Shown: positions 28,440 to 61,761 of the stretch, piece by piece
Numbering within the stretch: position 1 is the stretch's first letter
How the letters are laid out: the number at the start of each line of letters is the position of its first letter
Source: an uncultured Pseudomonadota bacterium
Lineage (GTDB): Bacteria > Myxococcota_A > Polyangia > Fen-1088
DNA length: 64,000 nt
Assembly: GCA_963847705.1 (NCBI GenBank)
Contig: CAWKBC010000001.1
Coordinates: 128,001-192,000 of the forward strand
Direction of reading: 5' to 3'
The notes under the pieces: model-generated
The model's input: the letters and a program-made list of their open reading frames with translations, nothing else
Told to the model about the DNA's origin: nothing
Database searches by the model: none
Made by a program: the position numbers and the translations under genes

Positions 28440-28569
28440 GACTCGTCGCGCAACAAAGCCGTCCCCGCTGGCCGTCGCAACGTCCAGCGGGGCTTGAAAG
28501 CTGGATTCCCGCCGCTGCGGCGGTACGGATTGGTTGCGACCTTCAACCCCCCTAGAAGGAGTGAGCCTC

Positions 28570-29695: not shown

Positions 29696-29843
29696 CCCGC
29701 TCCTGACCAGGCTGGCCACCGGCCGTTTTCAAATCGACCCGGGGCGCCTCGGCGCTCGACGGCCCTCCCTCCACCGGCCGGCTTGGGCCTCAGGCTGTGA
29801 GCGTCGAGGAGGATCCGGCTCTCGATCTCGGGCGCGACGCCGT

Positions 29844-31001: not shown

Positions 31002-31013
31002 GGATAGGGGGGT

Positions 31014-31040
31014 TTGTCGGGGAGCAGGAATCTTTGTTAC
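31014..31040 (-). promoter_or_regulatory. Variant element GTAACAA-N15-GACAA upstream of the GH54 gene at 31001
   Basis: 12 nt before ATG; no Shine-Dalgarno. Confidence 0.6.
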
Positions 31041-31186
31041 GGTAAAGTGCCTCGACCGCACGAGCGGGGCCGTCTCTGGCCCTGGCCCCGGCCCCGGCTC
31101 AGACACCGGGTGACGCGCCGCAAGGCTACCGGTTTCGCTCGAGAGTCGATCTCCCGATTGATGGGAATGTAAGGTGGCATGCTCTT

Positions 31187-32020: not shown

Positions 32021-32035
32021 AGCCGCGCACCGAGC

Positions 32036-33334
32036 TCAGGGCAGCGTGTACTTCTTCAGCATCGGCCAGACGATGTTGGCATTCGCCGCTTCGTGTCCGC
32101 CGTTGTTGTCCGTGCACAGCGTGACCTGAACACCCCCGCCGCACTGAGAGTACGTCTGACAGTTGTTTGAATCTGCCGCGCTGGGATTTCCGGTGCATCC
32201 GTCGAGGCTGGCCCATTTCTGAAAGGTGCCGACAGCTCCCAGAAAATCGATCGCCATGCCCGTGACCAGCGCCGAGTGCCCCCCGGCATAAGGCACGGTG
32301 GTGTCATTCTTGCCGCGCCACTCGATCATGGTGAGGGGACGCGCAGGCGCGCAATCCCCCTCGTTCTGTTGTGTCAGGTCGAAAGAGGCCGGCCCCGCGG
32401 CAGCAAAGAGATCCGCCGCATGACATCCGAGATAGTTCGACATGCCTCCGCCCATCGAGAAGCCCACCGCATACACGCGCTTGACGTCGATGCAGGCGAC
32501 CTTCTCCACCGCGGCCACCAGCGCCCTCGCAAAGGCCACGTCGTCGACGGCGACGCCGTTGATCGGCGAGGTGCAACAGCCCTCGATATCCCAGGCGTTT
32601 CCCAGATTCGGGCTTGGCTCTCCGTTGGGGAACGCCGAGACGACGCCTTCCTTGTCGATCACCGCGGGGTACGGCGAGCCGGACCTCCACTCGGTGTCGG
32701 AGCCGCCGATGGGATGAAAATCGACCACCAGTGGGACGGCCGTGGTACCGGTGTACCCGCTCGGCACGTGCAGGATGTATTCGCGGCTGAGCGTGCCGAC
32801 GGTGATCTTGGTGGTGGTGTCCCCGGCTTTCAAAGCGGTCGAAGGACAGGTCACCGATCCCCCTCCGGTTCCACCGGCGCCCGTACCTCCAGCTGTTCCG
32901 CCCGAGCCAGTCGCGCCGCTGCTGCCTCCATGGCCGCCGGTTCCCGCCGGGCCTCCTCCGGTTCCCGTGCCGCCGCTGCCCCCACCGAGGCCCGACAATC
33001 CGCCGGTGCTGCCGCCGGTGGCGCTGCCGCCGGTGCCGGTCGTGCCGCCGGTGCCGGTCGTGCCGCCGGTGCCGGTCGTGCCGCCGGACGACCTGCCGGC
33101 TGCGCCGCCGGTGGCCACGCTGCCGCCGGTGCCCGAGCCGATGCCCCCGGTTCCCGTGTTCGTCCCTCCGGTTCCGTGACCTCCGGTCTCCGAGCTGGAG
33201 CCGCCCGTGCTCGAGACAGAGCCGCCGCTCCCTCCAGGACCCGTCGAGTTACCCTGGTCGGTCCCGCACGCCGGTGGAAGAAGAACACCGACGAGGAACG
33301 TCGCTCTAAGACAGGCTTTCATTGAAGGTCGCAT
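32036..33334 (-). CDS. LpqC/PHB-depolymerase-like (CE1-like) esterase lipoprotein
   Basis: Lipoprotein signal and Gly linker; REYILHVP, PLVVDFH, VDDVAF, GFSMGG, GKNDTTVPY, GGH. Confidence 0.85.
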   Translation of the reverse strand: MRPSMKACLRATFLVGVLLPPACGTDQGNSTGPGGSGGSVSSTGGSSSETGGHGTGGTNTGTGGIGSGTGGSVATGGAAGRSSGGTTGTGGTTGTGGTTGTGGSATGGSTGGLSGLGGGSGGTGTGGGPAGTGGHGGSSGATGSGGTAGGTGAGGTGGGSVTCPSTALKAGDTTTKITVGTLSREYILHVPSGYTGTTAVPLVVDFHPIGGSDTEWRSGSPYPAVIDKEGVVSAFPNGEPSPNLGNAWDIEGCCTSPINGVAVDDVAFARALVAAVEKVACIDVKRVYAVGFSMGGGMSNYLGCHAADLFAAAGPASFDLTQQNEGDCAPARPLTMIEWRGKNDTTVPYAGGHSALVTGMAIDFLGAVGTFQKWASLDGCTGNPSAADSNNCQTYSQCGGGVQVTLCTDNNGGHEAANANIVWPMLKKYTLP

Positions 33335-33437
33335 AGGCTCTCCTCCGGGGGTTGATCTGCGTGCGAATATCGCCAGTGGCCCGCCAATACGGCAATAGGC
33401 CGATCGGCCCTAGCAGAGCTCAGGCGCTGCGCGGAGC

Positions 33438-34628: not shown

Positions 34629-34662
34629 GAAGGAACGCGCCCGCGGGCGACCGAACACGAGG

Positions 34663-36318: not shown

Positions 36319-36411
36319 CGGGGGCTCCTCGTTTCAGGGGGCACCGGATTTCGTCACAGCACCAGCACTTCTGCTTCGCCGGACGAGACGGTGGGGTGGT
36401 CTCCTAGTTCA

Positions 36412-36438
36412 TTGCTCGTCGGCCGATGCAGTTGTCAC
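36412..36438 (-). promoter_or_regulatory. Variant element GTGACAA-N15-AGCAA upstream of the GH30 gene at 36318
   Basis: Degenerate second half-site; 93 nt before ATG. Confidence 0.45.
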
Positions 36439-36609
36439 CGAAAAGGAAAAAATCGTCCCAACAATCGAAGACCGCGGTGCAAAGACCGTTGCACGAATGC
36501 GGCCCGGAAGTGGGAGATGTAGTTAGGTGTAGTCCTTGCTAACGCGTGGGGCGGTGAATTTGGCCGTCGTCCGGCCACCGCGTCGCGTTCGCTGTTGGGT
36601 TCCGCGAGG

Positions 36610-38511
36610 TCAGGGCGTGACCCGGAGGGTCGCCCAGCCGTGGGCAGGGACCGTGAACTGGTAGAGCGTCTGCGAGAGCGCGCTGCCCACCCCCACCGTC
36701 GTCGCCGCAGCCGAGGAGGTCTTGTTGTAGACCTCCACGATGACGCTGCCGTCGGGGTTCTTGAAGGCGAGCGCGTCGTTGGTGCCCTGCGTCCCGATGC
36801 GGGTCGCGCCGGGAACGACGTAAGCCGAGAAGTGCCGAAAGGCGTAGTAGGCGGCCGTCGCCGTCAGCGTCTTCGCGGAGCGATCGACCACCAGCAGCGC
36901 GTCCTGGGGCCAGCCGTCCAGGCTCTTGCCGACGGTGTCGAGCACCATGTTCCAGGCGTTGTACGAGTTCACGCCGGCGGTGACCCAATCGCGGATCAGC
37001 TGCCAGCTCTCCTCTCCATAGGCGTGGTCGTTCGGCGGCTTGTTCGGGTTGTACTGGCTCATCTTCCAGTACGGCGTGTCGAAGTTGTAGTTGCCGCACT
37101 CGTGCTCGGTCTGCATCACCGGACCCTTGGGCGCCAGCGTCGCCGCCGTGCTCTGAAGGTTCCACTGCAGCCCGAAGCCCTTGACGTAGGCCAGCGACGC
37201 GGCGTCGCTCGCCACCGCCGTCGCGATGTTGGCGTCGGCGGGGGCCGACATCGTCCCGCACCAGATCTCGGCGGCGACGTTCTGTTGCGAGAACGTCGGC
37301 CCGAGGTACGTCTTGAAGAAGTTGATCAAGAGGGACTGGGCCCAGTGGACGCGGGCATAGCCGGGCTCGTTCTGGGGGTGGATGGCGGAGATCGTGATGC
37401 CGACCTTGCCGTACTCCTGCACGAACTTGGCGAGATAGAGCGCGTACGCCTGTTGCGTCTGGGCGTCGCTCTTCATGTTCGAGCTGCTGTCCTCCATCCA
37501 GCTCGGCGGAATCCAGGGGCTGGCCCAGAGGCGAAGGTCGGGCCGGACCTGTAGTGCGGCGTTGATGAACGGGATCAGCTTCTGTTGATCGCGGGAGATC
37601 GAGAACTTGGACATCGCGTAGTCGCCGGCCGTGTCGTCGAGCGTGTACCAGCTGAGCGCGTAGTCGCTCGCGCCGATGGGCACCCGGCCGTAGACGAACT
37701 TCGCGCCGGCCTGGTCGTCGAAGAGGAGCTTGATCGCGTTCGTCACCTGATCCGAGCTGAGGACCGAGAGCGCGTCCCAGCCGGCCTCGTTGAAGGCTCC
37801 GCCGAAACCGTCCCAGCGCTGGTACTTGGTGTTCTGGTCGACGACCAGGCCGGCCGTTCCGGTGGTCACCTTGGTGACCTGCCCCGAGATCCAGTAGGCG
37901 CCCGGACCGGAGGTCATCAGCTCGGGGGCAGGGGAAGCGCCGCCCGAACCGCCTCCGGTGCCTGGTTGGCCGCCGCTGCCGGGAGACCCACCCGACGCCG
38001 GGGCACCGCTGCCGCCGACCGCGCCGCTGCCGCCCGATGCGCTGCCGCCCAGCCCGCCGCCAGCGCTGCCGCCGGGCCCGCTGCCGCCGGACGCGCTGCC
38101 GCCGAGCCCGCTGCCGCCGGACGCGCTGCCGCCGGCGCTGCCGCCAGACGCGCTGCCGCCGGACGCGTTGCCGCCGGCCCCGTTCATCATGCCGCCCGAG
38201 CCGGTGCCGCCACCGGTTGCCGACCCTCCCGCGAGCACCGTGTTGATACAGGTGCCGAAGCTGGTGCAGTCGGTCATGGCCAAGCAGCCGTTGAGCGCGT
38301 TCTCGGAGTCGGATCGTCCGGCGCTGGACATGGACTGCAGGGAGTTGTTGACCACGTTCTTGCACTGGGCCGCGGTGATCCCCGAAAGAGAGTCGCAGTC
38401 ACCGGCCCTCTGACATACGGACCCGGCGAGGTCGTTGCCGCTCTGACGGCAGCCTGTGGCTCCCCCCGCCAGGATCCCGACGGCCATGGTTGCCGAGAAT
38501 ATCTTCCACAT
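36610..38511 (-). CDS. GH30 glycoside hydrolase lipoprotein (glucosylceramidase-like type)
   Basis: GFGGAFNE, RVPIGASDY, ASPW, QNEPG, QTEH, WNMVLD, HFSAYV.PGA, AFKNPDG; start moved to ATG 38511. Confidence 0.88.
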   Translation of the reverse strand: MWKIFSATMAVGILAGGATGCRQSGNDLAGSVCQRAGDCDSLSGITAAQCKNVVNNSLQSMSSAGRSDSENALNGCLAMTDCTSFGTCINTVLAGGSATGGGTGSGGMMNGAGGNASGGSASGGSAGGSASGGSGLGGSASGGSGPGGSAGGGLGGSASGGSGAVGGSGAPASGGSPGSGGQPGTGGGSGGASPAPELMTSGPGAYWISGQVTKVTTGTAGLVVDQNTKYQRWDGFGGAFNEAGWDALSVLSSDQVTNAIKLLFDDQAGAKFVYGRVPIGASDYALSWYTLDDTAGDYAMSKFSISRDQQKLIPFINAALQVRPDLRLWASPWIPPSWMEDSSSNMKSDAQTQQAYALYLAKFVQEYGKVGITISAIHPQNEPGYARVHWAQSLLINFFKTYLGPTFSQQNVAAEIWCGTMSAPADANIATAVASDAASLAYVKGFGLQWNLQSTAATLAPKGPVMQTEHECGNYNFDTPYWKMSQYNPNKPPNDHAYGEESWQLIRDWVTAGVNSYNAWNMVLDTVGKSLDGWPQDALLVVDRSAKTLTATAAYYAFRHFSAYVVPGATRIGTQGTNDALAFKNPDGSVIVEVYNKTSSAAATTVGVGSALSQTLYQFTVPAHGWATLRVTP

Positions 38512-38606
38512 TCGCGATCGCTCTTTTCTCTTCGCGCAGTCCGTCCGAGACGAAAGCCGGGCGCCGACCAAGGACAGCTGAGGCGCAGCGCTGGTCACTT
38601 CAAGAC

Positions 38607-38633
38607 TTGTCGTCTCGCGTCCCCGTTTGTCAG
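38607..38633 (-). promoter_or_regulatory. Bipartite element CTGACAA-N15-GACAA upstream of the GH30 gene at 38511
   Basis: Exact match; 95 nt before ATG. Confidence 0.7.
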
Positions 38634-38661
38634 AAGACCTCATCGCAGCGCGACGAAGGCG

Positions 38662-49206: not shown

Positions 49207-49494
49207 GATGGTTTCCCCCTGAGGCAACCCGGCTGACTGCGTGAGTCCCGATGGTTTTGCGTCCCCCGATCGCTCGGGGTTTGCGGTTTGGTCACAGGTG
49301 CTGCTGATGGACACAGGGATACAAAAGCAGTAATCAGGCCAACCATTTTTTTAGTGAAATAGCGGCTCAATGGGGAGTTTGGACACCATCCGTTGTTGCC
49401 AAAACAACAGAATGGATGTCGCCGAGGCAACGCTTGGCGAGGACGCGTGACGCAGGGGAGGCGTCGCTGGCGCCGCGATGCGGCACGAAAAATC

Positions 49495-49665
49495 TCAGTC
49501 GCGCAGAGCTTTTAGTATTCGGCGATGGCGCCCATCGCGGACGTGGACGCGCTTGCACCGAGCAGAACAGGCAAAGACGACGATCCGGGCTTTCTCGCAG
49601 ATCGTGCAAACCCAGAACGAGGCGATCGGCTGGCGGCAAACCGAGCAGCTCTGTGCACCGGGCAT
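49495..49665 (-). CDS. Small zinc-finger protein (HIT/MYND-like), 56 aa
   Basis: CSVC-X9-CTIC-X9-CSARC-X3-H-X5-H; ATG 1 nt after the upstream stop. Confidence 0.55.
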   Translation of the reverse strand: MPGAQSCSVCRQPIASFWVCTICEKARIVVFACSARCKRVHVRDGRHRRILKALRD

Positions 49666-49666
49666 G

Positions 49667-49896
49667 TCAGGTGGGCTCAAAAGGCTGGTTCGAACCGGTC
49701 CCGGTGAGGCGCGGTCGATAATCTCTGGGCTGGCGCGCGTCAACGACCTGGCAGGTCAGCTCCTCGGCCGCCTCTCGATCGAGCGGCAGCGTGACCGGTC
49801 CGACGGTGATCAGGAAGCCACGAGCCGAGGGACAACCTCCAGGTGGGCCCTAACATTCCGAAATCTATGTTTCTTTCCGGGCTTTCTGATCGCCAT
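49667..49896 (-). pseudogene. Small hypothetical gene interrupted by an apparent 1-nt deletion near 49835
   Basis: MAIRKPGKKHRFRNVRAHLEV joins CPSARGFLITVGPVTLPLDREAAEELTCQVVDA... if one base is restored; motif 14 nt upstream; stop abuts the zinc-finger ATG. Confidence 0.4.
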
Positions 49897-49910
49897 CCCG
49901 CTCTGTGTAT

Positions 49911-49937
49911 TTGTCTCGTCCACCTCCGCATTGTCAT
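49911..49937 (-). promoter_or_regulatory. Bipartite element ATGACAA-N15-GACAA pointing at the small-gene pair
   Basis: TTGTC at 49911 and 49931 on the plus strand. Confidence 0.7.
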
Positions 49938-49988
49938 GGAACCGGGGGTACGCAATCGCACCACCCATCCCGAACCCTGACAGGTTGT

Positions 49989-50015
49989 CTGACAAGGCAG
50001 GGCAGATCGCGACAA
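49989..50015 (+). promoter_or_regulatory. Bipartite element CTGACAA-N15-GACAA upstream of the ECF sigma factor
   Basis: Exact match; 17 nt before GTG 50033. Confidence 0.75.
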
Positions 50016-50032
50016 TGGTCGGGTGGGTTATT

Positions 50033-50584
50033 GTGAGTCATCTGCGCCTCATTCCCCGAGCAGCTCCGCAGATGTCGCCCGACGATGCCTGCCTCGGTGC
50101 CTTCCAGCAGGAGCTCGGTTACATCTACCGATCGTTCCGGCGACTCGGCACCCCTCCCTCGGAGGTGGAGGACCTGACTCAGGATCTGTTCGTGGCGCTC
50201 CGAAGAGCCTGGAGCAAGTACGACTCCACCCGTCCCCTGCGCCCCTACCTGTTTGGGTTCGCCTTCCGGATCGCGGCTGCCCACGAGCGTAAGCGGACAC
50301 GCGAGGTGGCGTCCGGCCTGGTCCAGCTGGACGACACCGGGCCGGGGGCAGAGGAGGAGCTCCAATCCCATCAGACGCGCCGGCTGGTGCTGGCGGCGCT
50401 CAACCGGATTCCGCTTCCCAGGCGTGCCGTTCTCGTCATGCACGAGCTCGATGACGTTCCGGTGGCCGAGGTGGCCTCCACCCTCTCGATCCCCCTCTTC
50501 ACCGTCTACTCGCGGTTGCGGAAGGCCCGTCGAGAGCTCCAGACGGGAATTCGGCGCCTGCTGAGGGAAGCGGGCGGCGAGTGA
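50033..50584 (+). CDS. ECF RNA polymerase sigma factor
   Basis: VEDLTQDLF, LRPYLFGFA, RRAVLVMHEL, EVASTLSIPLFTVYSRLRKAR. Confidence 0.92.
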   Translation: MSHLRLIPRAAPQMSPDDACLGAFQQELGYIYRSFRRLGTPPSEVEDLTQDLFVALRRAWSKYDSTRPLRPYLFGFAFRIAAAHERKRTREVASGLVQLDDTGPGAEEELQSHQTRRLVLAALNRIPLPRRAVLVMHELDDVPVAEVASTLSIPLFTVYSRLRKARRELQTGIRRLLREAGGE

Positions 50585-51255
50585 TCGAATCGAAGGGAAG
50601 ACTTCCCCCAGCGGTGCGGGCGCTGCTGGATCGAGAGCGTCAGATTTCGGACCTGCCCGCCGCCGCCCGTGCCAGGATGCTCTCTCGTGCGCGCGCTGCG
50701 CTGGCCGCGGGGGTGGCCAGGCAGCCAATCCCGCCGAGGGCACCCTCAGCAGTTCGATGGGCGGCGGCGGCGGGGCTGGCCTGCGTGGCAGCCGTGGCGT
50801 CGGGCGCGGCCGCTTACAGCGTCGGCGTCCACGCCCGGCCGGTCGCGCCCGGCCTCCCGACGCCGCCCGCGCAATCCCCCACCGCCCGCTCGGACGCGGG
50901 AGACGGGCCGATCGTCGACCTGCGCCCTGCGCCGGCGCTCGCCGCGAAGCCGACCCGCCCCTCGGCTGGCGCTGGCCGGGCGGAGCTGCGTCTCCTCCAG
51001 CAGGCGCGGGCGGCCGTGGCGCGAGAGGATTTCATGCTGGCGCTCCAGCTGCTGGGCGAACACGCGCACCGCTTCAGAACGGGGCGGTTGGTGGAAGAGA
51101 GGGAAGCTCTGCGCGTCAAGTCCCTGGCGGGTCTTGGGCGCCGCGGGGCCGCCCGCCGTGCAGCGGCCGATTTCGAAGCCAACTTTCCGCGCAGCCCCCT
51201 TCTGCCCAGCGTCAGCGACATGCTCGATTCGTCCGCAGAGAATGAACGAAATTGA
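50581..51255 (+). CDS. Putative anti-sigma factor (single TM, Pro-rich linker, TPR-like C-terminus)
   Basis: GTGA overlap with the sigma gene; TM helix; EEREALRVKSL...FEANFPRSP. Confidence 0.7.
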   Translation: MIESKGRLPPAVRALLDRERQISDLPAAARARMLSRARAALAAGVARQPIPPRAPSAVRWAAAAGLACVAAVASGAAAYSVGVHARPVAPGLPTPPAQSPTARSDAGDGPIVDLRPAPALAAKPTRPSAGAGRAELRLLQQARAAVAREDFMLALQLLGEHAHRFRTGRLVEEREALRVKSLAGLGRRGAARRAAADFEANFPRSPLLPSVSDMLDSSAENERN

Positions 51256-51434
51256 GTCACGGCCGCGGGCGGCAACTCCTCGGGGCTAGCCACCACATTC
51301 CGTTTTCGCGGCCGGCGCCGGGCCAGGCAAGATCCAACGGGACTGGCTGTCGCCAGGTTCGCTAGGCCTGGCGCGACATGCCAGCATGCGAGGGTGTCGC
51401 CGTCTCAATCGCGAGGCTGTCGGAAAAATATCTC

Positions 51435-52475
51435 GTGAGGTGGCTCCTGTTCAGCTTGTCCTTGATGGCTCCCGCGTCGACGCTCCTCGGAACGACCGCC
51501 TGGGCCGCTTCGCCGACGACCGTCACGCTCGATTACCAGGTCGATCCAGAGGTGACTGGATGTCCGGCGGCGGCGGAGTTTCGGAGCACCGTGGAGCGCC
51601 AGCTTGGCTACGATCCGTTTCGGGCTGTCGCTGAACGGCGGGTCGCCGTCCAGATAGGGCGCAGGGGCGCCAGCTTCGACGGACGGATCAAATGGAGCGA
51701 CGACCATGGACGATGGGTGGGCGATCGCCAACTGGCTTCGCGACGCCCGGGGTGCGCCGATCTCGCGGCCAGCCTGGCTTTCTCGGTGGCGGTGCAGATA
51801 CAGCTCATCGCGGCGCTTGCGCCGTCCACGCCGGAGCCGCCCGCTCCGGTGCAGACCCCCGTCGCTCCTCCCGCCCCGGCGATGGTGTCGGAGCAACCTC
51901 CGATCTCTCCTGCGCAACCTCTCCCGCCGGCGGGCAAAGTCGCCGCGCCGCCAACCCCGGAACCGCGCTCGGCGGAACATGCGCGGCGTCTGAAGCTATT
52001 CCTCGGCGTTGGTCCCTCGCTGACTCTGTGGTCGGCGCCTCATCCCACGGGACTCGGCCGGATCTTCGCCAGCGGACGGGTCTCCTGGATCTCGGTCGAG
52101 ATCGCCCTGGACGCCGCGTTGCCGGCAACCCAAAGAGAGGCCGACGGAAGCGGCTTTTCACTCGACCGGTTCGCGGCTGGTGCGGCCGTGTGTGGTCACG
52201 CATCGGCCTTGGCCGCCTGCCTCACGACGACGGTGGGTCTGCTGCGGGCCCGTGGGCTCGAGGTGGACGCTCCTGCTTCGTCCTCCGGCCTCTTCTCCCA
52301 GCTGGGGGCCCGGATTGGGGTGGCGGAAAATCTCGGTCGCTACTTCGTCGCCGCCAGAACGGACGCGCTCGTCATGCTCTCCTCGTGGTCGGTGAGGCTC
52401 AATGACACCGCCGTCTGGACGACACCCCGCGTCGGCCTCGTCGTCGGCTTCGACCTCGGCGTGCGCTTTTTCTGA
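51435..52475 (+). CDS. Secreted protein with a probable C-terminal outer-membrane beta-barrel
   Basis: Signal peptide; Cys-pair N-terminal domain; Pro linker; amphipathic strands ending GFDLGVRFF. Confidence 0.55.
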   Translation: MRWLLFSLSLMAPASTLLGTTAWAASPTTVTLDYQVDPEVTGCPAAAEFRSTVERQLGYDPFRAVAERRVAVQIGRRGASFDGRIKWSDDHGRWVGDRQLASRRPGCADLAASLAFSVAVQIQLIAALAPSTPEPPAPVQTPVAPPAPAMVSEQPPISPAQPLPPAGKVAAPPTPEPRSAEHARRLKLFLGVGPSLTLWSAPHPTGLGRIFASGRVSWISVEIALDAALPATQREADGSGFSLDRFAAGAAVCGHASALAACLTTTVGLLRARGLEVDAPASSSGLFSQLGARIGVAENLGRYFVAARTDALVMLSSWSVRLNDTAVWTTPRVGLVVGFDLGVRFF

Positions 52476-52508
52476 GAAGACCTTTTGTCTGCGAGCACCT
52501 ACAATCCG

Positions 52509-53066
52509 ATGCAGTCCGTGCGTCAATTGCGCCTAGTGCCGTCACCCTCTCCAGCGGTGACCCCTGACGAGGCCTGCCTGGAGGCCTTTCTGCGCGAGCT
52601 CGACTACGTGCACCGAACGTTGCGCCGCCTCGGCACCTCCCCGTCGGAGACGGACGATCTGGCGCAGGAGGTGTTCCTCGCTCTGCGCAATTGCTGGAGC
52701 AAGTACGATCCCGAGCGGCCGTTGCGCCCGTATCTGTTCGGGATCGCCTTCCGGATCGCGCTGGCGCACCACCGCAAGAGAAACCGCGAGGTGGCATTCG
52801 AGGTCGTCGAGGTCAGCGACACCGGTCCTGGACCCGATGATGTGCTCCAGAGCAAGCAGGCCCGTGCGCTGGTGTTGGCGGCTCTCGAGCACATTCCTCT
52901 GCGACGACGTGCCGTGCTGCTCATGCACGATCTCGACGAGGTCCCCGCCGAGGAGGTCGCCGCGGCGCTCGGAATCCCGAAGTTCACCGTCTACTCGCGC
53001 CTGCGAAAGGCCCGCCGCGAGATGGAGACCGCCGTGCGGCGACTGACGAAGCCGAGGACCCGATGA
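52509..53066 (+). CDS. ECF RNA polymerase sigma factor (close paralog of 50033)
   Basis: DDLAQEVF, LRPYLFGIA, RRAVLLMHDL, GIPKFTVYSRLRKAR. Confidence 0.92.
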   Translation: MQSVRQLRLVPSPSPAVTPDEACLEAFLRELDYVHRTLRRLGTSPSETDDLAQEVFLALRNCWSKYDPERPLRPYLFGIAFRIALAHHRKRNREVAFEVVEVSDTGPGPDDVLQSKQARALVLAALEHIPLRRRAVLLMHDLDEVPAEEVAAALGIPKFTVYSRLRKARREMETAVRRLTKPRTR

Positions 53067-53737
53067 CCATGCGTTCCGACATGCCCCCCGAGCTCCGCAC
53101 GCTGCTCGACCAGGAGCGGGTCATCCCGCCTCTTCCGTCCTCGCAACGGGCGCGCGCCATGGCCCGGGCGCGGGCAGCCCTGGCCACGCCAGCCAAGGCC
53201 ACCGCTGCACCGTTCGGCGCGCCGCCGCGTCTCCGGTGGGCCACAGCGGCGGCGGCTGTCCTGGTGGTCAGCGCGGCGGTCGCCGCCGCCGCATACGAGA
53301 TCCACACCCGGTTCGCGCCCGGACCGACGACTGGTCCGGCAGCGGTAGCCTCGGTGCCCAAGGTCGTGGCGAACGCCCCCTCTCCGTCGCCGCCTGCGGG
53401 GGCGCTCCCCGAACTGCCCCCTGCGCCGGCACCCACCGTCGCGGCACCGGTCCAGTCGCCGGCGGATGCGGCGCGCGAGGAGCTGCATCTCATGCGGCAG
53501 GCGCGCGCGGCGGTCGCGCGCGGTGACTTCGCAGCGGCGCTCGCGCCTCTCGCCGAGCACGCGCGCCTCTGCAAGAACGGTCGGCTCGTCGAGGAACGGG
53601 AGGCGCTGCGCGTGAAGGCGCTCATGGGCCTCGGCCGCTCCGAAGAGGCGCGTCGCGCGGCGGCCGCTTTCCGCGCACGTTTCCCGCGCAGCGTTCTCTT
53701 GCCGGCAGTCGGTCAGATGCCGGTTTCGCGACCGTGA
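53063..53737 (+). CDS. Putative anti-sigma factor (paralog of 50581)
   Basis: ATGA overlap; TM helix; EEREALRVKAL...FRARFPRS. Confidence 0.7.
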   Translation: MTMRSDMPPELRTLLDQERVIPPLPSSQRARAMARARAALATPAKATAAPFGAPPRLRWATAAAAVLVVSAAVAAAAYEIHTRFAPGPTTGPAAVASVPKVVANAPSPSPPAGALPELPPAPAPTVAAPVQSPADAAREELHLMRQARAAVARGDFAAALAPLAEHARLCKNGRLVEEREALRVKALMGLGRSEEARRAAAAFRARFPRSVLLPAVGQMPVSRP

Positions 53738-54756
53738 TCGGGGCTGGGCTTCGTCCGCCCGGCGGACGGCTGCCAGTCGCGCTTCGCTTGGTTCTCGTTC
53801 TGGTGGCGGCGAGCTGCTCCGGCACGCTCGACGCTGGCAAGGACATTCCCCACGGGATGCTCCCGGTCGACGAGCGGAACCCGGTGATCATCTACAACGA
53901 CTCCTCGATCGACAACTGGATGGGAGAGTACGCATTCCTGCTGGCGAACAGCGGAGGACCTCCGGTGGCCGGACTTGTCGCGACGGCCAGCGGCTACTGG
54001 CACAACGTCAACGACAACGCCAGCGGTTGGAGCAACGTGTTGACCGCCGCGCAGTCGAGCGGGTTGAAGAACATTCCGGCGACGGTCATCACGAGCACGA
54101 ACAATCCTCCGCTCACGCGACCCATGGACGGACAGATCGACGACACTGCGCCCAACAACTCGGCCGGCGCTTCGTTGATCGTGAATCTGTCGCGCGAGCT
54201 GAGCCTGCCGTGGCGTCCGGTCGTCGTCTTGGCGGGCACGCAAATGACCGACGTCGCCGACGCCTATCTGATCGATCACAGCGTCGCCGAGCGGGTGGTC
54301 GTGGTGGCGGCGCTCGGAACCTACGCCGCGCCGAACGGTGTCATGGCTGCACCCAACGGCGAGCTCGACCCGTGGGCCGACTGGATCGTGGCCCAGCGGT
54401 TCCAGTACGTGCAGGTCAGCGCCTTTTACGATCAGACGGTGGATGTGACGACGGCTGAGCTCCCCGATCTGCCGTCCAATGCACTGGGTGCCGAGATGGC
54501 CGCGAAGCAACCCAACATCTTCACCATCACCACCGCGGCCGATCAGGTGAGCGTCCTGGCCGTCGCCTTACCCGCCTTCGTTGGCGCGGTGCAACGAGCG
54601 GTCCCCGACACCACGGCCGCCTTCGATTCCACCCAGGGCCCGCCATTGATTCCGGCCGCGAACGGCAACGTCTGGATCGTCACGCAGATCGCCGCGCCGC
54701 TCGCCGGCGCCACTCTCTGGCAGATGCTGCTCGATCGCACCCTCTTCGGCGGCTGA
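53734..54756 (+). CDS. Lipoprotein of unknown function, possibly nucleoside-hydrolase-like fold
   Basis: Lipobox AASC; VIIYND..D, GASLIV, VVVLAG..TDVADAYL.D..VAERVVVV, NGELDPWA echo the IU-NH fold. Confidence 0.45.
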   Translation: MIGAGLRPPGGRLPVALRLVLVLVAASCSGTLDAGKDIPHGMLPVDERNPVIIYNDSSIDNWMGEYAFLLANSGGPPVAGLVATASGYWHNVNDNASGWSNVLTAAQSSGLKNIPATVITSTNNPPLTRPMDGQIDDTAPNNSAGASLIVNLSRELSLPWRPVVVLAGTQMTDVADAYLIDHSVAERVVVVAALGTYAAPNGVMAAPNGELDPWADWIVAQRFQYVQVSAFYDQTVDVTTAELPDLPSNALGAEMAAKQPNIFTITTAADQVSVLAVALPAFVGAVQRAVPDTTAAFDSTQGPPLIPAANGNVWIVTQIAAPLAGATLWQMLLDRTLFGG

Positions 54757-54890
54757 CCGCCCGACGACGGTCGCGACGGAAGCCGGCGCAGTTTTCCCTC
54801 AACAAAACGACGGCCGCCAGCAGTTCCAGTGTGGTCGCCGTCCGCGCTCTGCGGACAGGCCCCCCCAGACCTGCGGCCAAGGAGAGCTTC

Positions 54891-56371
54891 GTGCAACAGA
54901 CTGCGTCCCGTTTCAAGAAGACGTTCCGGATCGCTGCGCCAGTTCTGGCGGCCCTCATCGCCGGGTGTGGAGCAGCGGACACCGACGGCGGTGAGAGTGG
55001 CTCTGGTGGCCGCCTGGGGACCGGAGGAATGGTTGGCGGGGGAGGGGAGACGGCGTCCGGAGGGAACGGCGGGACGAGAACGGCGGCCGGGGGGACGTTC
55101 GGCTCTGGCGGGATCGGCACCGCGACAGGCGGAAGCGTCGGGGGAGGTGGCGCGGCTGGCAGCGGACCGGCGGGGTCGGGCGGCGCCACGGCGACCGGCG
55201 GGCATCTCGGCTCCGGGGGAGCGGGAAACGGCGGCGCAGGTGGAGGGAGCAGCGGTGGCGGCACGGGAAGCGGCGGGGCTGCTGGGACGGGCGGGACGAG
55301 CGGCGGGGGGACGAGCGGCAGCGGCGGCAAAGGCGGCGGCGGGACACCCGGCTCGGGCGGCACCGCCGGCTCGGCCGGCGCGGGGGGAGCGTCGGGGGCC
55401 CTCGGGCCGTGCGACATCTACCAATCGGCGGGCACTCCCTGCGTGGCGGCCCACAGCACCGTCCGTGCGCTCTATGCCGCCTACAAGGGCGCCCTCTACC
55501 AGGTCCGGCGAGCTTCAGACAATTCTACGAAGGACGTCCCGGTGCTCAACGCCGGAGGGTTCGCTGACGTCTCCGTTCAAAATACTTTCTGCTCCGGCAC
55601 GAAGTGCACCATCTCGATCCTCTACGACCAGTCGACGAACCACAACAACCTCGTCAAGTCGGGCGTCGCGCATTGGTTGCCGAACGGAGGAACCGAAGCC
55701 GATGCCGCGGCCGGACAGATCACGGTCAGCGGTCACACGGTTCACGGAATCTACGTCACCGGCGACTCCACGAACGTCGCTTACAGAAACAACGCCACGA
55801 CGGGGGTGGCGAAGGGAGATCAGGCGGAGGCGATGTACATGGTGGTGGACGGCAAGCGCACCAGCGACCAGTGCTGCTTCGACTACGGAAACGCCGAGAC
55901 CACCGGGGTCGACGACGGCAACGGCACGATGGAGGCCGTGTACTGGGGGTCCGACACCACCTGGGGGGGAAGGGCGAAGGCAACGGCCCGTGGGTGGCCG
56001 CCGACCTCGAGAATGGGATGTTCAAGAGCAACCAGGGCGGATGGCAAACCACCTCGACGTCGCCGAACGACAAGTCGGTGGTCGCGGCCTTCGCGACCGC
56101 GATGTTGAAAGGTCCGTCCGGGAATCATTTCACGCTCAAGGCTGCGGACGCGCAGTCTGGCGCCCTGACCACGATGTGGGACAGCGTGCGTCCATCTCCC
56201 GGCTACAGTCCCAAGAAGTTGGAGGGGGCGATCATCTTGGGAACGGGCGGGGACGGAAGCAATGGCGGCACGGGAACCTTCTTCGAAGGAGCCATGACCA
56301 GCGGCAATCCGTCGGACGCGACCGACGCCGCCATCCAGGCCAACATCGTGGCGGCGGGCTATGGGCGCTGA
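54891..56371 (+). CDS. abfB: GH54-like lipoprotein, split by a 1-nt deletion in a G run near 55965
   Basis: Lipobox IAGC; GPCDIY, CCFDYGN, TMEAVYWG, then in another frame ADLENG, GGDGS, GTFFEG; break lies at CTGGGGGGGAAG. Confidence 0.82.
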
Positions 56372-56448
56372 GGTCCCGTCGTCGAGAAAAGTGAGCTAGT
56401 TCTCGCGAATCGGGCCACTGCGGGGTACTCGGAAGACAGCCACGCGCG

Positions 56449-57081
56449 ATGCCGATCCCCCGTTCCAAGCCACCTCTCTCACTGGTCGTCGGCGGAGCTC
56501 CCCGCGACGCCAGCGATCGCGACCTGGCAGCCGGTCTCGTCGCGGGAGAGGAGTGGGCCGTCTCTGAAACCTGGCGCCGGTTCGCGCCCATGGTTCTCAT
56601 GGCCGCCGAGCGTATCCTTGGTTCGAGCTCCGAGGCCGAGGACGTCGCCCAGGACGTGTTTTGCCTGGTCTTTCAGCGCGTGAGAACGCTCCGGCAGTTC
56701 GGAAGCTTTCGGAGCTTCGTCTATTCCTTCGCCGTCCGGCGGCTGCGGGAGGAGCTGCGCCGCCGCAAGCGACGTCACTGGCTGTCGCTCTTCGGTGCCG
56801 CCCAGCCGGACGCGCCAGATCTCCGATCCGCGGATCTGGAGTCCCGGGACGTGTTGCGGCGGTTCGACCGGTTGCTCGATCGGCTTTCGGCCCGCGACAG
56901 GCTGGTGTTCGTCCTCAGGCGCATGGACGACATGACGATCGAGGAGATCGCCGGGACGATGGATCTGTCGACGTCGACGGTGAAGCGCGCGATGGCACAC
57001 GCCTCCGAGCGGCTGTCCCGCTGGGTCGCGGCCGACTCGGGCCTTGCCGCCCTGGCGGGGGGGAAACGATGGGAAAAGTAA
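56449..57081 (+). CDS. ECF RNA polymerase sigma factor
   Basis: AEDVAQDVF, FRSFVYSFA, RLVFVLR, EEIAGTMDLSTSTVKR. Confidence 0.9.
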   Translation: MPIPRSKPPLSLVVGGAPRDASDRDLAAGLVAGEEWAVSETWRRFAPMVLMAAERILGSSSEAEDVAQDVFCLVFQRVRTLRQFGSFRSFVYSFAVRRLREELRRRKRRHWLSLFGAAQPDAPDLRSADLESRDVLRRFDRLLDRLSARDRLVFVLRRMDDMTIEEIAGTMDLSTSTVKRAMAHASERLSRWVAADSGLAALAGGKRWEK

Positions 57082-58412
57082 CGGCGGGGGCCGACGGCCC
57101 ATTCGCGGGCGACCCGGGCGATCATCCGGCCCTGTCGTCGCTGGTCGAGCTGAGCCGCGACGCGGTGAAACCACCCAGCGAGGCGCAGCTGGAACGAGGA
57201 TTGATCGAGGTGCGGGAGCGCCTGGCCGAGGTTCGTTCGCGCGGCCGCGTCTGGCGGCGGGCTGCGGTCGCCGGAGCGGCGGCGGCGGTCCTGCTTGCGA
57301 CCGGGATCTGGGGAGTGTCGGTGTTTCGGAGTGGTGCGATTTTGGGCCCGCTGGCCGTCGATCGGCCGGTGACGGTTGATCGGATCGAAGGCGGGGAGTT
57401 GCTGGACGGAGGTTATCTTTCCGAATCGGGACATGGGGGCGTCGGTGTGTTCTTCAATGAAGGAAGCTCATTCCTGCTTGCGCCGGGAACCCGGGGTCGC
57501 TTGCGCGAGGTCTCCAAGGACGGCGCCCGCTTTGCGCTCGAGGACGGCGGGGCGTCGTTCCAGATCACGCCGAACGGGGCCCGCCGGTGGTCGGTCGAGG
57601 CCGGACCTTTCCTGGTGACCGTCAAGGGGACCGTCTTCAACGCCGCGTGGGATCCGGTCAGCGAGCGCTTCGAGCTGTCTCTGCGTCGAGGTCGCGTGGT
57701 GGTCAGCGGGCCGGTCGCGGGCGGGGCCATTCCCCTTCGCGCTGGACAGCACCTCGTCATCGTCCTGCCCCGAGCAGAGATGGTCATCACTGAAGAACGG
57801 TCACAGGAGCCGCCAGAGGAGCAGGCCCGGGAGGGCCCGCCGACTGAGATGCCCGCGGCTGCGGCGGCGCCCTCCGCGAAGCATCCGGCCGCGCGGACGA
57901 ACATGGCCGGTGGCGCGGCACCTCTCGTCTCCAGCACCAGCGCGGGGCGACGCTGGGCCGAGCTGATGGCCGCTGGACACTGGGACCAGATCCTGGCCGA
58001 CGTCGATCGCCAGGGGATCGACGCCGCGCTGGAGTCTGCCTCCAGCGAGGACTTGCTGGCGCTCGCCGATGCCGCTCGCTATCGGCGCCGCGCGGGTCTG
58101 GCGCGCGCGGCGCTCCTCGCCCAGCGACGCCGCTACCCTGGCTCGGTCCGGGCGCTGGACGCGCTGTTCCTGCTCGGTCGGGTCGAGGAGCTGAGCTCAG
58201 ACGGTGCCGCGCGTGCGATCGCGTTTTATGACGACTATCTCGAGCGTGCGCCCCGGGGCGGATATGCGGCGGAGGCGCTGGGGCGCAAGATGATCCTCAC
58301 CAACGACCTCGGCGGTCCGGGCAAGGCGCGGCCGCTCGCCGACGAGTATCTGCGTCGCTTTCCCAGCGGCAGCTACGCGGGGTCGGCGCGGGCGCTCGGC
58401 CGCGTACCGTAG
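57069..58412 (+). CDS. FecR-domain anti-sigma factor with C-terminal TPR-like domain
   Basis: TM helix; FNEGSSF.L, LEDG, VEAGPFLVTVKGTVF (FecR); RRYPGS...ALFLLGR...YLRRFPSG. Confidence 0.82.
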   Translation: MGKVTAGADGPFAGDPGDHPALSSLVELSRDAVKPPSEAQLERGLIEVRERLAEVRSRGRVWRRAAVAGAAAAVLLATGIWGVSVFRSGAILGPLAVDRPVTVDRIEGGELLDGGYLSESGHGGVGVFFNEGSSFLLAPGTRGRLREVSKDGARFALEDGGASFQITPNGARRWSVEAGPFLVTVKGTVFNAAWDPVSERFELSLRRGRVVVSGPVAGGAIPLRAGQHLVIVLPRAEMVITEERSQEPPEEQAREGPPTEMPAAAAAPSAKHPAARTNMAGGAAPLVSSTSAGRRWAELMAAGHWDQILADVDRQGIDAALESASSEDLLALADAARYRRRAGLARAALLAQRRRYPGSVRALDALFLLGRVEELSSDGAARAIAFYDDYLERAPRGGYAAEALGRKMILTNDLGGPGKARPLADEYLRRFPSGSYAGSARALGRVP

Positions 58413-58418
58413 GGCATC

Positions 58419-59441
58419 GTGGTGGCCCTGGCGCCCACGGTCTTGCTGACGTCACTCGCCTGTCTGTGGGGGGCTCGTCTCGAGGCGGCCACCGTCCTGA
58501 TCGTGCGCCCGGCCTCTCCTTCGGCCGAGCTGACCGAGACGGTCTCGCGGCTACACGGCGAGATGTTGTCGGTGGGGTTGGCCGTCACGATCGACGAGCG
58601 CCCTCGAACGGACGCCTCGAGCGCGCCCGCCTGGTTGGAGGGCGTGGCGCTCGACCGCGGGATCGACGCGGCGATCGACGTGATCGGCGGTGGGCGGGTG
58701 CAAGCGGCCGACATCTGGGTGTTCCATCCTGCGCCGCGGCCGCCGCAGGTCACCCGCGTGATGGTCGAGCCGGACGTCGAGAACGCGCCGGCGCGCCTGG
58801 CCATTCGCGCCATCGATGTTCTTCGCTCGTTGCTCATCGAAAGAGAGCTGGCGGTCGCACCGACGGTGCCGTCGCCGGCGACGCCCGCGGTGGTGGTCGC
58901 CACCGACGCTTCACCGGTCCACGCCGGCGTGCAGATCGGGTTCGAGCTGGGCGCGGCAGCGCTGGCCAGCCTGGACGGCGTCGGCCCCGCGATCTTGCCG
59001 CTCCTTCGCATCGACGCGGCGGTGAGTCCATGGCTGGGGCTACAAGCCGAGGCAGCGGGATTCGGAACGCGCCCCACGGTGGGAGCGCCGGGGGCCAGCG
59101 CGCGGGTCGCCCAGCAGTATGCGCTGGCCGGAGCGTGCATCTGCGCGCCTTCGATGGCGCGCCTGCGGCTGGTCGCGGGCCTTTCGGCCGGCGCCCTGCG
59201 GACGGCGGCCGACGGCGAGGCAGCGGCGCCGTTGCAGGGGCACTCGGTCGCGCAGTGGTCCTTCGTGCTCGAGGCGAGTGTCGGTGCGCGCTTGCGGCTC
59301 GCCAGGCGCGCCCACCTCACGGCCGCCGTGCACGTTCAGGTCGCCGAGCCCTACGTCGACGTCCGCGTGGTGAACGCAGGATCCGCCACCAGCGGTCGCC
59401 CCAACGTCCTCGTGACCTTCGCCGTCGGTGAGTGGTTGTGA
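58419..59441 (+). CDS. Secreted protein with a probable C-terminal beta-barrel
   Basis: Signal peptide; N-terminal domain (LAIRAIDVLRS); Pro linker; amphipathic strands; same layout as 51435. Confidence 0.5.
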   Translation: MVALAPTVLLTSLACLWGARLEAATVLIVRPASPSAELTETVSRLHGEMLSVGLAVTIDERPRTDASSAPAWLEGVALDRGIDAAIDVIGGGRVQAADIWVFHPAPRPPQVTRVMVEPDVENAPARLAIRAIDVLRSLLIERELAVAPTVPSPATPAVVVATDASPVHAGVQIGFELGAAALASLDGVGPAILPLLRIDAAVSPWLGLQAEAAGFGTRPTVGAPGASARVAQQYALAGACICAPSMARLRLVAGLSAGALRTAADGEAAAPLQGHSVAQWSFVLEASVGARLRLARRAHLTAAVHVQVAEPYVDVRVVNAGSATSGRPNVLVTFAVGEWL

Positions 59442-60367
59442 CGGGCGGCGCGCGCTGGTCTGCCCTGGTTGCGCTGGCGGTGGCCCTCGCGCAGGTGGCC
59501 TGTTCGCGCGCCACCCTGGACGCCGTGACCGGCGCTCCCGCCGACGCCGCGGCCGATGCGCTCCTCTCGGCCGGATGCGCGTCGCCTGGGCTCCCGGCCG
59601 GCGATATGACGCGGACGCTGCAGGTGGGGACGGTGTCGCGCAGCTACGTCCTCCACCTGCCGGCGGCGTACGACGGCACGAAGGCCGCGCCGCTGGTCCT
59701 CGATTTCCACGGTATCGGCGGCACCGGCGCGAGCGAGCTGGCGAGCTCACCCTATCCGCCGCTGCTCGATCCCACCGGAGTGGTCATGGCGTTTCCCGAC
59801 GGGTTGAAGGGGCCCGCCGGCACCGCCTGGAACGTCGGTCCCTGCTGCGTGGCGGGCGTGGACGACGTGGCGTTCGCCCGCGCGGTGGTGGCCGACGTCG
59901 GACAGGCGGCCTGCATCGACGCGAATCGCGTCTACGCCGTGGGCGTGCTGACGGGCGGCGGGATGGCCTACTATCTCGCCTGCCAGGCCGCCGATCTCTT
60001 CGCGGCCGCGGCGCCCGCCGCGTTCGACATGCTGGCCGAGAACGTGGGCACGTGTCTCCCGTCGCGGGCCATCAGCGTCGTCTCCTTCCGGGGGACTGCC
60101 GACCCACGCGTCCCGTACGCGGGCGGCGCCTCGTCGCTGGTGCCGGGGATGCCGGTCACCTTCCTGGGCGCGGTGGGGTCGTTTCAGGCCTGGGCGCAGA
60201 TCGATCACTGTGCCGGGGCGGCCTCTTCTGCCGACGCGAACGGGTGCGCTCACTACTCCGGCTGTGAGGACGGGGTGGAGGTCATCCTCTGCAGCAAGCA
60301 AGGGGGGATGGATGATCCCGGGGATCCAACGATTGCCTGGCCAGTTCTCAGGCGGCACGCGCTCTGA
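59438..60367 (+). CDS. Esterase-fold lipoprotein lacking catalytic Ser and His (pseudo-enzyme; paralog of 32036)
   Basis: Aligns along its catalytic domain with 32036, but GFSMGG is GVLTGG and GGH is GGM. Confidence 0.8.
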   Translation: MTGGARWSALVALAVALAQVACSRATLDAVTGAPADAAADALLSAGCASPGLPAGDMTRTLQVGTVSRSYVLHLPAAYDGTKAAPLVLDFHGIGGTGASELASSPYPPLLDPTGVVMAFPDGLKGPAGTAWNVGPCCVAGVDDVAFARAVVADVGQAACIDANRVYAVGVLTGGGMAYYLACQAADLFAAAAPAAFDMLAENVGTCLPSRAISVVSFRGTADPRVPYAGGASSLVPGMPVTFLGAVGSFQAWAQIDHCAGAASSADANGCAHYSGCEDGVEVILCSKQGGMDDPGDPTIAWPVLRRHAL

Positions 60368-60393
60368 CAGGGCGTCGGGGCCCTGTTTTTTTT
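60367..60393 (+). terminator. Rho-independent terminator
   Basis: ACAGGGC-GTCGGG-GCCCTGT hairpin followed by a T tract, closing the third ECF operon. Confidence 0.75.
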
Positions 60394-60465
60394 GAACCAT
60401 TCGGCACCGCGGACGGCCACTGCGGGCCAAACGGACATTCTCCGTTCAAATCGAGGAGCGAAACC

Positions 60466-61761
60466 ATGAAGGCAGCACGTCTGTCGATCCTGATTCTGGC
60501 CGGTGGCATCGCAAGCATCTCTGGGTGCGGCGGCTCGGACGCGGGCGGAACCGGCGGCTCGGGCACCGGCGGCTCTTCGAACACCGGCGGGACGATCGGG
60601 ACTGGCGGCACGCGCGCCGGCACGGGCGGCTCGGGCACGGGCGGCTTCGGCACGGGCGGCTCGCAAACTGGAGGCGCTGCCGGTTCGCGGGCCACCGGCG
60701 GCGCGACTGGGACGGGCGGCGCCATCGCCACCGGCGGCGCGACCGGGACCGGCGGTGTCGCCACCGGCGGCGCGACCGGGACCGGCGGTGTCGCCACGGG
60801 CGGCACGACCGGGACCGGCGGTGTCGCCACCGGCGGCGCGGGGGGCGGGGGCGGGACCTCTGCCAGCGGAGGCGGTGCTGGTCACGGCGCCACCGGCGGT
60901 GAGAACGGTACCGGTGGCAGCGCGGGCGGCACGGGCAGCGGAACCTGCACGGCCTCGAAATCCGCCGGCGCGAGCGCGTCGGGCACGGGACCGCACAAGG
61001 TGACCGTCGAGACGAACGCCGACTCCGGAATCAACCAGGGAACCATCTTCCGGCCGTCCGATCTGGGCGGCACGGAGAAGTACCCCATCTTCGTCTGGGG
61101 CGAGGGCGGCTGTTCGGAGAATGGGCTCTCGAACTCGGCCGCGATGGGCGAGATCGCGTCGTACGGATACTTCGTCATCGCCGACGGCGTCCCCAACGGC
61201 AGCGCCTCCCGCACGATGACCTCGGGCGACCCCTCGACGATGGGGGTCCCGCTGCTGGCGTACGTCACCTGGGCGATCGCCGAGAACGACAAGCCCTGCA
61301 GCGCCTACTACCAGGCCCTGGACACCACCAAGGTGGCGGCCAACGGATTCTCGTGCGGAGGATTGATGTCCGAGGGGACCGCCGGCGATTCGCGCATCAC
61401 GACCTGGGGACTCAACAGCAGCGGGCTCCTGAGCGCGGACCCGACCTATCTCAAGACAGTCCATACCCCGGTCCTGGTCGTGCTGGGCGGTTCCGGCGAC
61501 ATCGCCTACACGAACGGCGAGCGCGACTACTCGACCATCGCCGGCAACGGGATTCCGATCATGCTGTTCAGCAAGGCGCTGGGGCACGGTGGTGACCTCT
61601 TCAGCGCCCATGGTGGCGATTTCACCAAGATCGATCTGGCCTGGCTCAACTGGCAGCTCAAGGGCGACACCACCGCCACCGGCAAGGGCCTGCTGATCGG
61701 CCCGAGCTGCCCTTACTGCAGCGACAGCGCCTGGGAAGTGAAGTCCCAGAACATCCAGTAG
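60466..61761 (+). CDS. Alpha/beta-hydrolase lipoprotein with Gly/Thr linker
   Basis: Lipobox ISGC; YPIFVWGEGGC, IASYGYFVIA, GFSCGG, GDIAY, GHGG. Confidence 0.82.
   Translation: MKAARLSILILAGGIASISGCGGSDAGGTGGSGTGGSSNTGGTIGTGGTRAGTGGSGTGGFGTGGSQTGGAAGSRATGGATGTGGAIATGGATGTGGVATGGATGTGGVATGGTTGTGGVATGGAGGGGGTSASGGGAGHGATGGENGTGGSAGGTGSGTCTASKSAGASASGTGPHKVTVETNADSGINQGTIFRPSDLGGTEKYPIFVWGEGGCSENGLSNSAAMGEIASYGYFVIADGVPNGSASRTMTSGDPSTMGVPLLAYVTWAIAENDKPCSAYYQALDTTKVAANGFSCGGLMSEGTAGDSRITTWGLNSSGLLSADPTYLKTVHTPVLVVLGGSGDIAYTNGERDYSTIAGNGIPIMLFSKALGHGGDLFSAHGGDFTKIDLAWLNWQLKGDTTATGKGLLIGPSCPYCSDSAWEVKSQNIQ

Follow-up and report, generated by a model that had tools for sequence, protein, structure and literature searches.

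The operon and its surroundings

The window (a stretch of 64,000 nucleotides from a contig of an uncultured bacterium) contains a four-gene operon on the forward strand. Gene 1 (56449..57081, + strand) encodes an ECF sigma factor with Sigma70_r2 and r4_2 domains. Gene 2 (57069..58412, +) encodes an anti-sigma factor that is FecR-like, with a weak match to FecR (E = 2.8e-4; 21.7 bits, under the 24-bit cut-off). It has one transmembrane segment and, by inspection, a TPR-like C-terminus (Pfam returned no TPR family). Gene 3 (58419..59441, +) encodes a protein of 340 amino acids with a signal peptide, an alpha/beta domain (about residues 22-145, presumed to be periplasmic), and a predicted C-terminal 8-stranded barrel of the OmpA/OmpW type. 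No Pfam family matched gene 3. In its structural model (pLDDT 88), the barrel matches OmpW (Z = 17.8, rmsd 3.0, 168 residues aligned), and the N-terminal domain resembles anticodon-binding and TolB-N-like alpha/beta folds (Z = 9.5-10.3). Finally, gene 4 (59438..60367, +), whose start overlaps the stop of gene 3, encodes a pseudo-esterase lipoprotein with an alpha/beta-hydrolase fold, and this is the candidate sensor.

In FecI-FecR-FecA cell-surface signalling, one operon encodes an ECF sigma factor, a FecR anti-sigma factor, and an outer-membrane barrel with an extra N-terminal domain. [quoted passage not shown] However, its barrel is predicted to be 8-stranded and OmpA/OmpW-like instead of a TonB-dependent transporter, and its specificity appears to reside in a separate, swappable lipoprotein. 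We considered a TonB-dependent receptor as the outer-membrane partner and rejected it on the length of gene 3 and its predicted 8-stranded barrel. Pfam also gave no match to an STN-type signalling domain on gene 3, where the fold matches are the anticodon-binding and TolB-N-like ones, and the four-gene unit includes no transporter.

FecR-type anti-sigma groups have been classified among the ECFs (Casas-Pastor et al., 2021, PMC7826278). [quoted passage not shown] The ECF267 text of that paper mentions neither a barrel nor a lipoprotein and calls the promoter motif not conserved, whereas the motif is conserved here (see below).

Just upstream of the operon is a GH54-type arabinofuranosidase B gene (54831-56371, +) whose two parts are in different frames (covering positions 1-189 and 187-314 of the Pfam family), because of either a frameshift or an assembly error. 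Another type of ECF unit is found in tandem at 49478-54756 (+). The first of these units has an ECF gene, a TPR-like anti-sigma gene, and a barrel-like gene at 51378. The second has an ECF gene at 52485, an anti-sigma gene at 53063, and a lipoprotein gene at 53734 whose product has a start like that of the slot-4 proteins described below (CSGTLDAG). This lipoprotein resembles nucleoside hydrolases (Atlas 0.89, which we treat as a lead only); sequence searches of PDB and Pfam gave no match. It reads YNDSSID where nucleoside hydrolases have an Asp-rich motif, so it is possibly another disabled enzyme.

Loss of catalytic residues from the pseudo-esterase

Gene 4 encodes 309 amino acids with no internal stop (59432 holds another possible start, an in-frame GTG). 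By sequence, its best solved relatives are AoAxeB (PDB 9J07, E = 5e-20) and AaFaeD (8JH8, E = 7e-15). An AlphaFold2 model (mean pLDDT 85) has TM-scores of 0.67 to AoAxeB and 0.64 to AaFaeD, and the modelled alpha/beta-hydrolase fold matches the structure of 9j07 with E = 3e-16. The Pfam family Esterase_PHB scores 16.1 bits on this protein, under its 23-bit cut-off. The catalytic triad of AoAxeB is given as S149/H282/D213 (PMC12103068). In the sequence alignment to 9J07, S149 aligns with Leu171 of gene 4 (codon at 59948..59950, +) and D213 aligns with Asp222.

An earlier note on this DNA, made from the letters alone, had described gene 4 as colinear with an active-looking paralog in the window (32036..33334, - strand), which has GFSMGG, Asp, and GGH motifs and a long Gly/Thr linker. 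Indeed, the two proteins are 52% identical over 269 amino acids, and GFSMGG of the paralog corresponds to GVLTGG, as the note had said, with Leu171 in place of the nucleophile. The note was also right that the catalytic His is lost, but it assigned this to a change from GGH to GGM. We place the His column at Asp292 (codon at 60311..60313, +) rather than at Met291 because the alignment is ungapped, with gene 4 reading CSKQGGMDDPG where closer intact relatives read CTKQGGGHEPG. The note's other observations, that the reading frame, the Cys residues, the lipobox, and the catalytic Asp are intact and that the long Gly linker is missing, agree with what we found in this protein; in the wider family the Asp is relaxed. 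The linker is generally reduced in relatives that lack the His: the median number of GG, TG, or SG dipeptides ahead of the core is 4 in 92 His-less sequences and 31 in 33 intact ones.

We rejected an active CE1-like esterase (ESTHER families Esterase_phb / FaeC), as the GxSxG nucleophile and the catalytic His are missing while the fold and Asp222 are present; the protein probably lacks esterase activity. With AoAxeB and AaFaeD it shares sequence, predicted fold, the catalytic Asp, and Cys at two disulfide positions. It differs from them in the loss of Ser and His, in being a bacterial lipoprotein with a docking-type tag, and in being fixed in a signalling operon.

These losses are conserved. 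We aligned the query with the best 120 of 1324 matches (59-94% identity), and the Ser is missing from 120 of the 121 sequences (118 have Leu, 2 have Ala, and 1 has Ser), while none has His at column 292. The catalytic Asp is retained by 104 of the 121, as compared to 39 of 39 His-bearing copies. Lipobox residue Cys22 is invariant in a 119-row alignment. We also assembled a set of 150 distinct esterase domains. They came from 16 loci of a genome scan, from 89 genomes searched for the family (with 40 extracted regions added), and from metagenomes (the best 80 of 412 matches). Two of these (L012 and L013) are His-less by column but were dropped, since their His is displaced and they cluster with the intact esterases. 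The His is present in 39 of 39 intact rows and in 0 of 109 rows of the His-less clade. Several residues of the former pocket or core (H91, W131, C136, C137, D197, and R218) are kept in all 109 of these rows and in nearly all of the intact rows.

Could gene 4 still catalyse a reaction by shifted or non-canonical chemistry, using Thr172, Cys136/137, or the acidic residues at 292-293? T172 is present in 120 of the 121 sequences, the lost His is usually replaced by an acidic residue, and H91 and R218 are invariant. However, column 292 varies freely among 111 His-less rows (D in 45, E in 35, L in 10, Q in 9, A in 6, G in 3, T in 2, and a gap in 1), and basal members carry Met at 172. H91, R218, and the Cys pair are just as invariant in intact esterases. 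Also, each of the four unrelated folds that have lost catalytic residues in this operon position (described below) would require a new chemistry of its own. We consider this explanation very improbable.

The dN/dS ratio (omega) is similar in dead and active forms. Under codon models (MG+F3X4, with kappa fixed at 1), omega was 0.130 for 28 rows from genomes that lack both Ser and His, and 0.125 for 9 His-less rows that retain Ser. The 30 metagenome rows gave 0.106, and the 34 intact ones 0.098. (L014-L016 and L164, which have long branches, were excluded from this run and from the 45-row tree discussed below.) As compared to the nearest genome, the pseudo-esterase gene has dN of 0.043 and dS of 0.33. 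Thus, the gene is under purifying selection, much like its active relatives, and the earlier note's view that the catalytic loss does not reflect decay holds up (omega of 0.13 versus 0.10 in active relatives). A pseudogene or an assembly error might have been suspected because the assembly is incomplete (84.7% complete, with 6% contamination) and because the window has at least one split gene (54831-56371). But identical substitutions are found in 120 other proteins at 59-94% identity, and they recur in independent assemblies. Given the 121-sequence alignment and the low omega, the chance of decay or error is negligible and we rule it out.

In phylogenetic trees, the His-less and intact forms are separated by one split (SH-aLRT support of 91 with 150 rows and 96 with 45 rows; both trees are quick searches from alignments that include the two trait columns). 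The basal His-less rows retain Ser and have Q or E in place of His. So, in the His-less clade, Ser was lost after His, possibly more than once (3 changes on the 45-row tree). The basal state, with Ser and Asp kept and His lost, is that of the plant gibberellin receptor GID1, which is described as an alpha/beta-hydrolase that became a receptor through loss of its catalytic His (PMC3531792). GID1 is a soluble plant protein from a different subfamily, and the crown clade here has lost Ser as well. As would be expected of a pseudoenzyme receptor of the GID1 kind, gene 4 and its relatives have consistently lost catalytic residues while purifying selection maintains the protein.

The named relatives are mostly from Myxococcota, Polyangia, and a phylum sample of 400 further genomes gave a match at E ≤ 1e-70 in 1 of them and none in the rest searched. 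A complete cassette is found in a record titled Acidobacteriota (L003), which could reflect either transfer or a binning error. Also, five stretches of a 1463-amino-acid protein (P0122) match the pseudo-esterase profile.

Slot 4 and its swappable domains

The dead form is tied to the fourth position of the operon, which we will term slot 4. Among 102 rows of the His-less clade with readable upstream DNA, 101 directly follow gene 3 or the FecR-like gene; the exception (L166) lies outside of any cassette. None of the 34 intact rows with context hold this position. In the 101 cassette copies, His is never kept and Ser alone is kept in 6, and in 100 of them the end of gene 3 shares 4 or 10 nucleotides with the start of gene 4. 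The family search of 89 genomes, which found 28 His-less copies inside the slot, 1 outside, and 24 intact copies outside, is the fairer sample because the metagenome rows were picked by their likeness to the dead form. A second family, that of a Sorangium genome, was examined in 251 genomes (the best 30 of 81 matching loci and one locus from the phylum sample). It has 20 dead copies in the cassette, all of which lack both Ser and His, 9 intact copies outside, and 2 of unknown status. Thus, the loss is both conserved among orthologs and tied to a translationally coupled signalling operon, and none of the sequence-based objections that the earlier note allowed for has held.

Five intact copies (L006, L127, L138, L153, and L156) lie directly behind a His-less copy, which fits an origin by local duplication. 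For L006 and L138, the promoter motif described below precedes the intact copy. There are also two orphan disabled enzymes, with no gene 3 upstream, that retain the N-terminal tag of slot-4 proteins: L166 (G031:C176), mentioned above, and L237 (G040:C116).

What else occupies slot 4? We searched 60 regions behind other matches to gene 3 (of 150 listed; 287 were found), dropped a spurious ORF (L188) and three regions without an ORF, and scanned 56 ORFs. (One locus that occurred twice, L179 = L294, was merged.) The 56 included 32 with lectin-like LamG domains, 7 GH141, 5 GH29, 9 esterases of a second, AaFaeD-like lineage, 1 PL11, 1 truncated ORF, and 1 uncoupled aldehyde dehydrogenase. The source genome itself has five ECF/FecR-like/barrel units. 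The four others end in a LamG lipoprotein, a lipoprotein that we could not place, a TPR-barrel gene with a 3keto-disac_hyd-like lipoprotein, or nothing; the paralogous cassette on contig C32 has no slot-4 gene. For the slot-4 lipoprotein of the paralogous cassette on contig C16 (G000:C16:22848-24383, - strand), no Pfam family scored above its cut-off, and an ORF for a protein kinase lies downstream of that cassette.

We searched for each of the three enzyme families (GH29, GH141, and the second esterase) across the 89 genomes and read 30 loci per family. The conserved nucleophile of GH29 is an Asp (PMC10154630), and in PDB alignments it sits in the WFDG of solved structures. All 5 cassette copies have Thr instead, as does 1 of 24 copies outside; the exception is L237, which carries the slot-4 tag. 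For GH141, we relied on the catalytic roles given for D523 and D564 of BT1002 in a review (PMC10154630), which we placed at chain positions 528 and 569 from their 41-residue spacing. All 7 cassette copies have Gly or Ser at the D523 column, and so do 2 of 21 copies outside. These two (L270 and L271) are not adjacent to gene 3, and L270 is near the end of a gene for a TPR-like anti-sigma factor. In the second esterase, Ser is changed to Ala at all 9 distinct cassette loci and at 0 of 20 outside, and His is changed to Leu at all 8 cassette loci that could be scored. Finally, the single PL11 in the slot has YGL and FNQ where a solved PL11 has HGD and YNQ. We take these residues to be catalytic, and the possibly disabled PL11 is a lead only. 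Overall, catalytic loss tracks slot 4 in every enzyme family that we compared, and the free-standing relatives are nearly all intact. The link amounts to about one evolutionary event per family. Because kin are not independent, the weight of this evidence lies in four families rather than in hundreds of genomes or in the counts of rows.

In two genomes, disabled GH141 cassette copies are 5-7 kb from other GH141 genes (G047:C220, 33499-42729, and G033:C12, 135441-142237), and those nearby in G047 keep both Asp (L291).

The slot-4 proteins of all domain types share an N-terminal tag. After the lipobox, the pattern C-x3-4-[LIVM]-x-[AVILP]-[IVLTA] occurs in 49 of 52 slot-4 proteins and in 0 of 30 downstream lipoproteins (the pattern is descriptive and was written after we viewed the slot-4 set). 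In gene 4, Cys22 and the tag (CSRATLDAVT) are encoded at 59501..59530 (+). As the tag is the only feature common to all of the slot-4 proteins, they might have a structural or protein-binding role, such as plugging or stabilising the barrel or sensing a protein (the active esterase or the state of the envelope), and binding of small molecules would be irrelevant. Several surface positions (P236, E281, K287, R306, and H307), which are invariant solely within the His-less clade, could be read in the same way. But a plug would not need four folds from carbohydrate enzymes, each with a targeted catalytic loss, nor would it need an invariant former pocket. We think this role quite unlikely.

A proposed cell-surface switch

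An AT-rich stretch followed by the motif TGRRCY-N19/20-[AT]CTGC is found in 42 of 47 regions upstream of the ECF gene, where shuffles predict 0.3. Behind gene 4 it occurs in 37 of 95 regions, as compared to 0.8 by shuffling. We defined the pattern with these regions already in view. In the window, the predicted promoters are ahead of the ECF gene (56387..56421, +) and ahead of a hydrolase gene downstream of the operon (60388..60423, +). When a matrix was trained without the source genome, the site at 60388 ranked first in its 6.1 Mb and the site at 56387 ranked second. The genome-wide scan gave no regulon past these two sites, with 31 hits as compared to 34 in the control, which is background. 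The operon is likely to be autoregulated from the promoter at 56387. The likely target of the other promoter (60466..61761, +) encodes an alpha/beta-hydrolase lipoprotein with a Gly linker, in which GFSCGG and the C-terminal GHGG are intact. It belongs to another hydrolase family than gene 4 and is the most conserved downstream target: of 30 genes that we recovered behind the motif after gene 4, 20 are its homologs, 2 correspond to the intact paralog, and the remaining 8 are truncated within the linker.

We propose that gene 4 is a swappable pseudoenzyme sensor, which would provide the ligand-binding input to a TonB-free, four-gene ECF cell-surface switch. We put the probability of this at roughly 70%. 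Four separate targeted inactivations, in a position that otherwise holds lectin-like domains, suggest that the slot selects for binding without turnover. The earlier note had favoured a binding-only sensor for this one gene, and that idea gains support because slot 4 also holds lectin-like domains or three other enzyme families that were disabled separately. In the proposed mechanism, the N-terminal tag, as a candidate docking strand, would dock the gene 4 lipoprotein on the gene 3 barrel, and the intact pocket would hold a fragment of an esterified plant glycan (of the acetyl- or feruloyl-xylan type) without cleaving it. The N-terminal domain of gene 3 would relay binding to the FecR-like anti-sigma factor, which would then free the ECF sigma factor to drive transcription of both the operon that encodes it and the intact esterase gene at 60466. 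Loss of catalysis may have been selected because a sensor that destroys its ligand would signal poorly. Against this reading stand the exceptions named above (L166, L237, L270, L271, and the cassette with an empty slot 4), the unlike hydrolase family of the main downstream target, the weak FecR match, and the way in which the promoter pattern was defined.

An alternative is that gene 4 does not signal and instead captures esterified glycan at the surface for the co-induced enzymes, much like SusD or a CBM, so that it would be an output of the ECF sigma factor rather than its input. Gene 4, being inside the operon, follows the promoter that is predicted to be autoregulated; genes for active enzyme lipoproteins are its neighbours; and lectin-like domains in slot 4 would fit capture as well as sensing. 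On the other hand, the four-gene unit has no transporter and the partner is a narrow 8-stranded barrel. Also, gene 4 is translationally coupled to the anti-sigma and barrel genes (in 100 of 101 copies), while the enzymes are behind a promoter of their own. We view capture as unlikely, and we prefer the sensor.

The sensor can be compared to the biomass sensors of Clostridium thermocellum, SigI-RsgI, which are described as having CBM, PA14, GH10, or GH5 modules (PMC6852018; see PMC10766802 for the logic of RsgI-GH sensors). In both systems, as far as these accounts describe SigI-RsgI, carbohydrate-binding or enzyme-derived modules would serve as exchangeable inputs, outside the cell, to alternative sigma factors that govern CAZyme genes. 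In contrast to the monoderm system, in which the sensor is fused to the anti-sigma factor, the system here is from a diderm and has a separate lipoprotein, a barrel, and repeated targeted loss of catalysis. We rejected an RsgI-type fusion, as the putative sensor is encoded by a separate gene two positions downstream of the anti-sigma factor. Judging from the sequences, then, this is not an active CE1 esterase, a TonB-receptor system, or an RsgI. Our literature searches, which covered papers available without a subscription, found no description of an ECF/FecR-like/barrel/lipoprotein cassette.

More broadly, we lean slightly towards the view that polysaccharide-degrading myxobacteria have a TonB-free and SusC/D-free chassis (ECF, FecR-TPR, and an 8-stranded barrel) whose specificity changes when a neighbouring CAZyme is copied, the copy gains a short lipoprotein tag, and its catalytic residues are knocked out. 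At least four families (two esterase lineages, GH29, and GH141; perhaps also PL11 and the nucleoside-hydrolase-like fold) would have undergone this separately, and with intermediates alive that lost His first and Ser later, it would be a repeatable route from enzyme to receptor. If so, this would account for how soil myxobacteria can sense specific plant glycans in the absence of SusC/D and of hybrid two-component sensors. It would also provide a bacterial enzyme-to-receptor series in which intermediates are still living and active sisters are close (52-75% identical), making the steps of the conversion directly testable. A modular glycan-sensor chassis could suit biosensor work. Databases label such proteins as "PHB depolymerase" despite the missing triad, so these annotations should be viewed with caution.

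As for the ligand, acetyl or feruloyl esters of xylan are only suggested, by ancestry (the nearest characterised relatives) and by the window's genes for arabinofuranosidase, GH30, and GDSL enzymes. Leu at the nucleophile position may fill the acyl pocket, and therefore the ligand may differ from the ancestral ester. A run of enzyme lipoproteins with Gly/Thr linkers is encoded at 29844-38643 (- strand): arabinofuranosidase B, the intact esterase, a GDSL esterase, and two GH30. The run adjoins a LuxR-type regulator at 31187. Another Gly-linker lipoprotein is encoded at 28534-29706 (+), and what is likely to be its glycoside hydrolase domain runs on in a different frame (ORF 29024-29695), which is a second apparent frameshift in the window.
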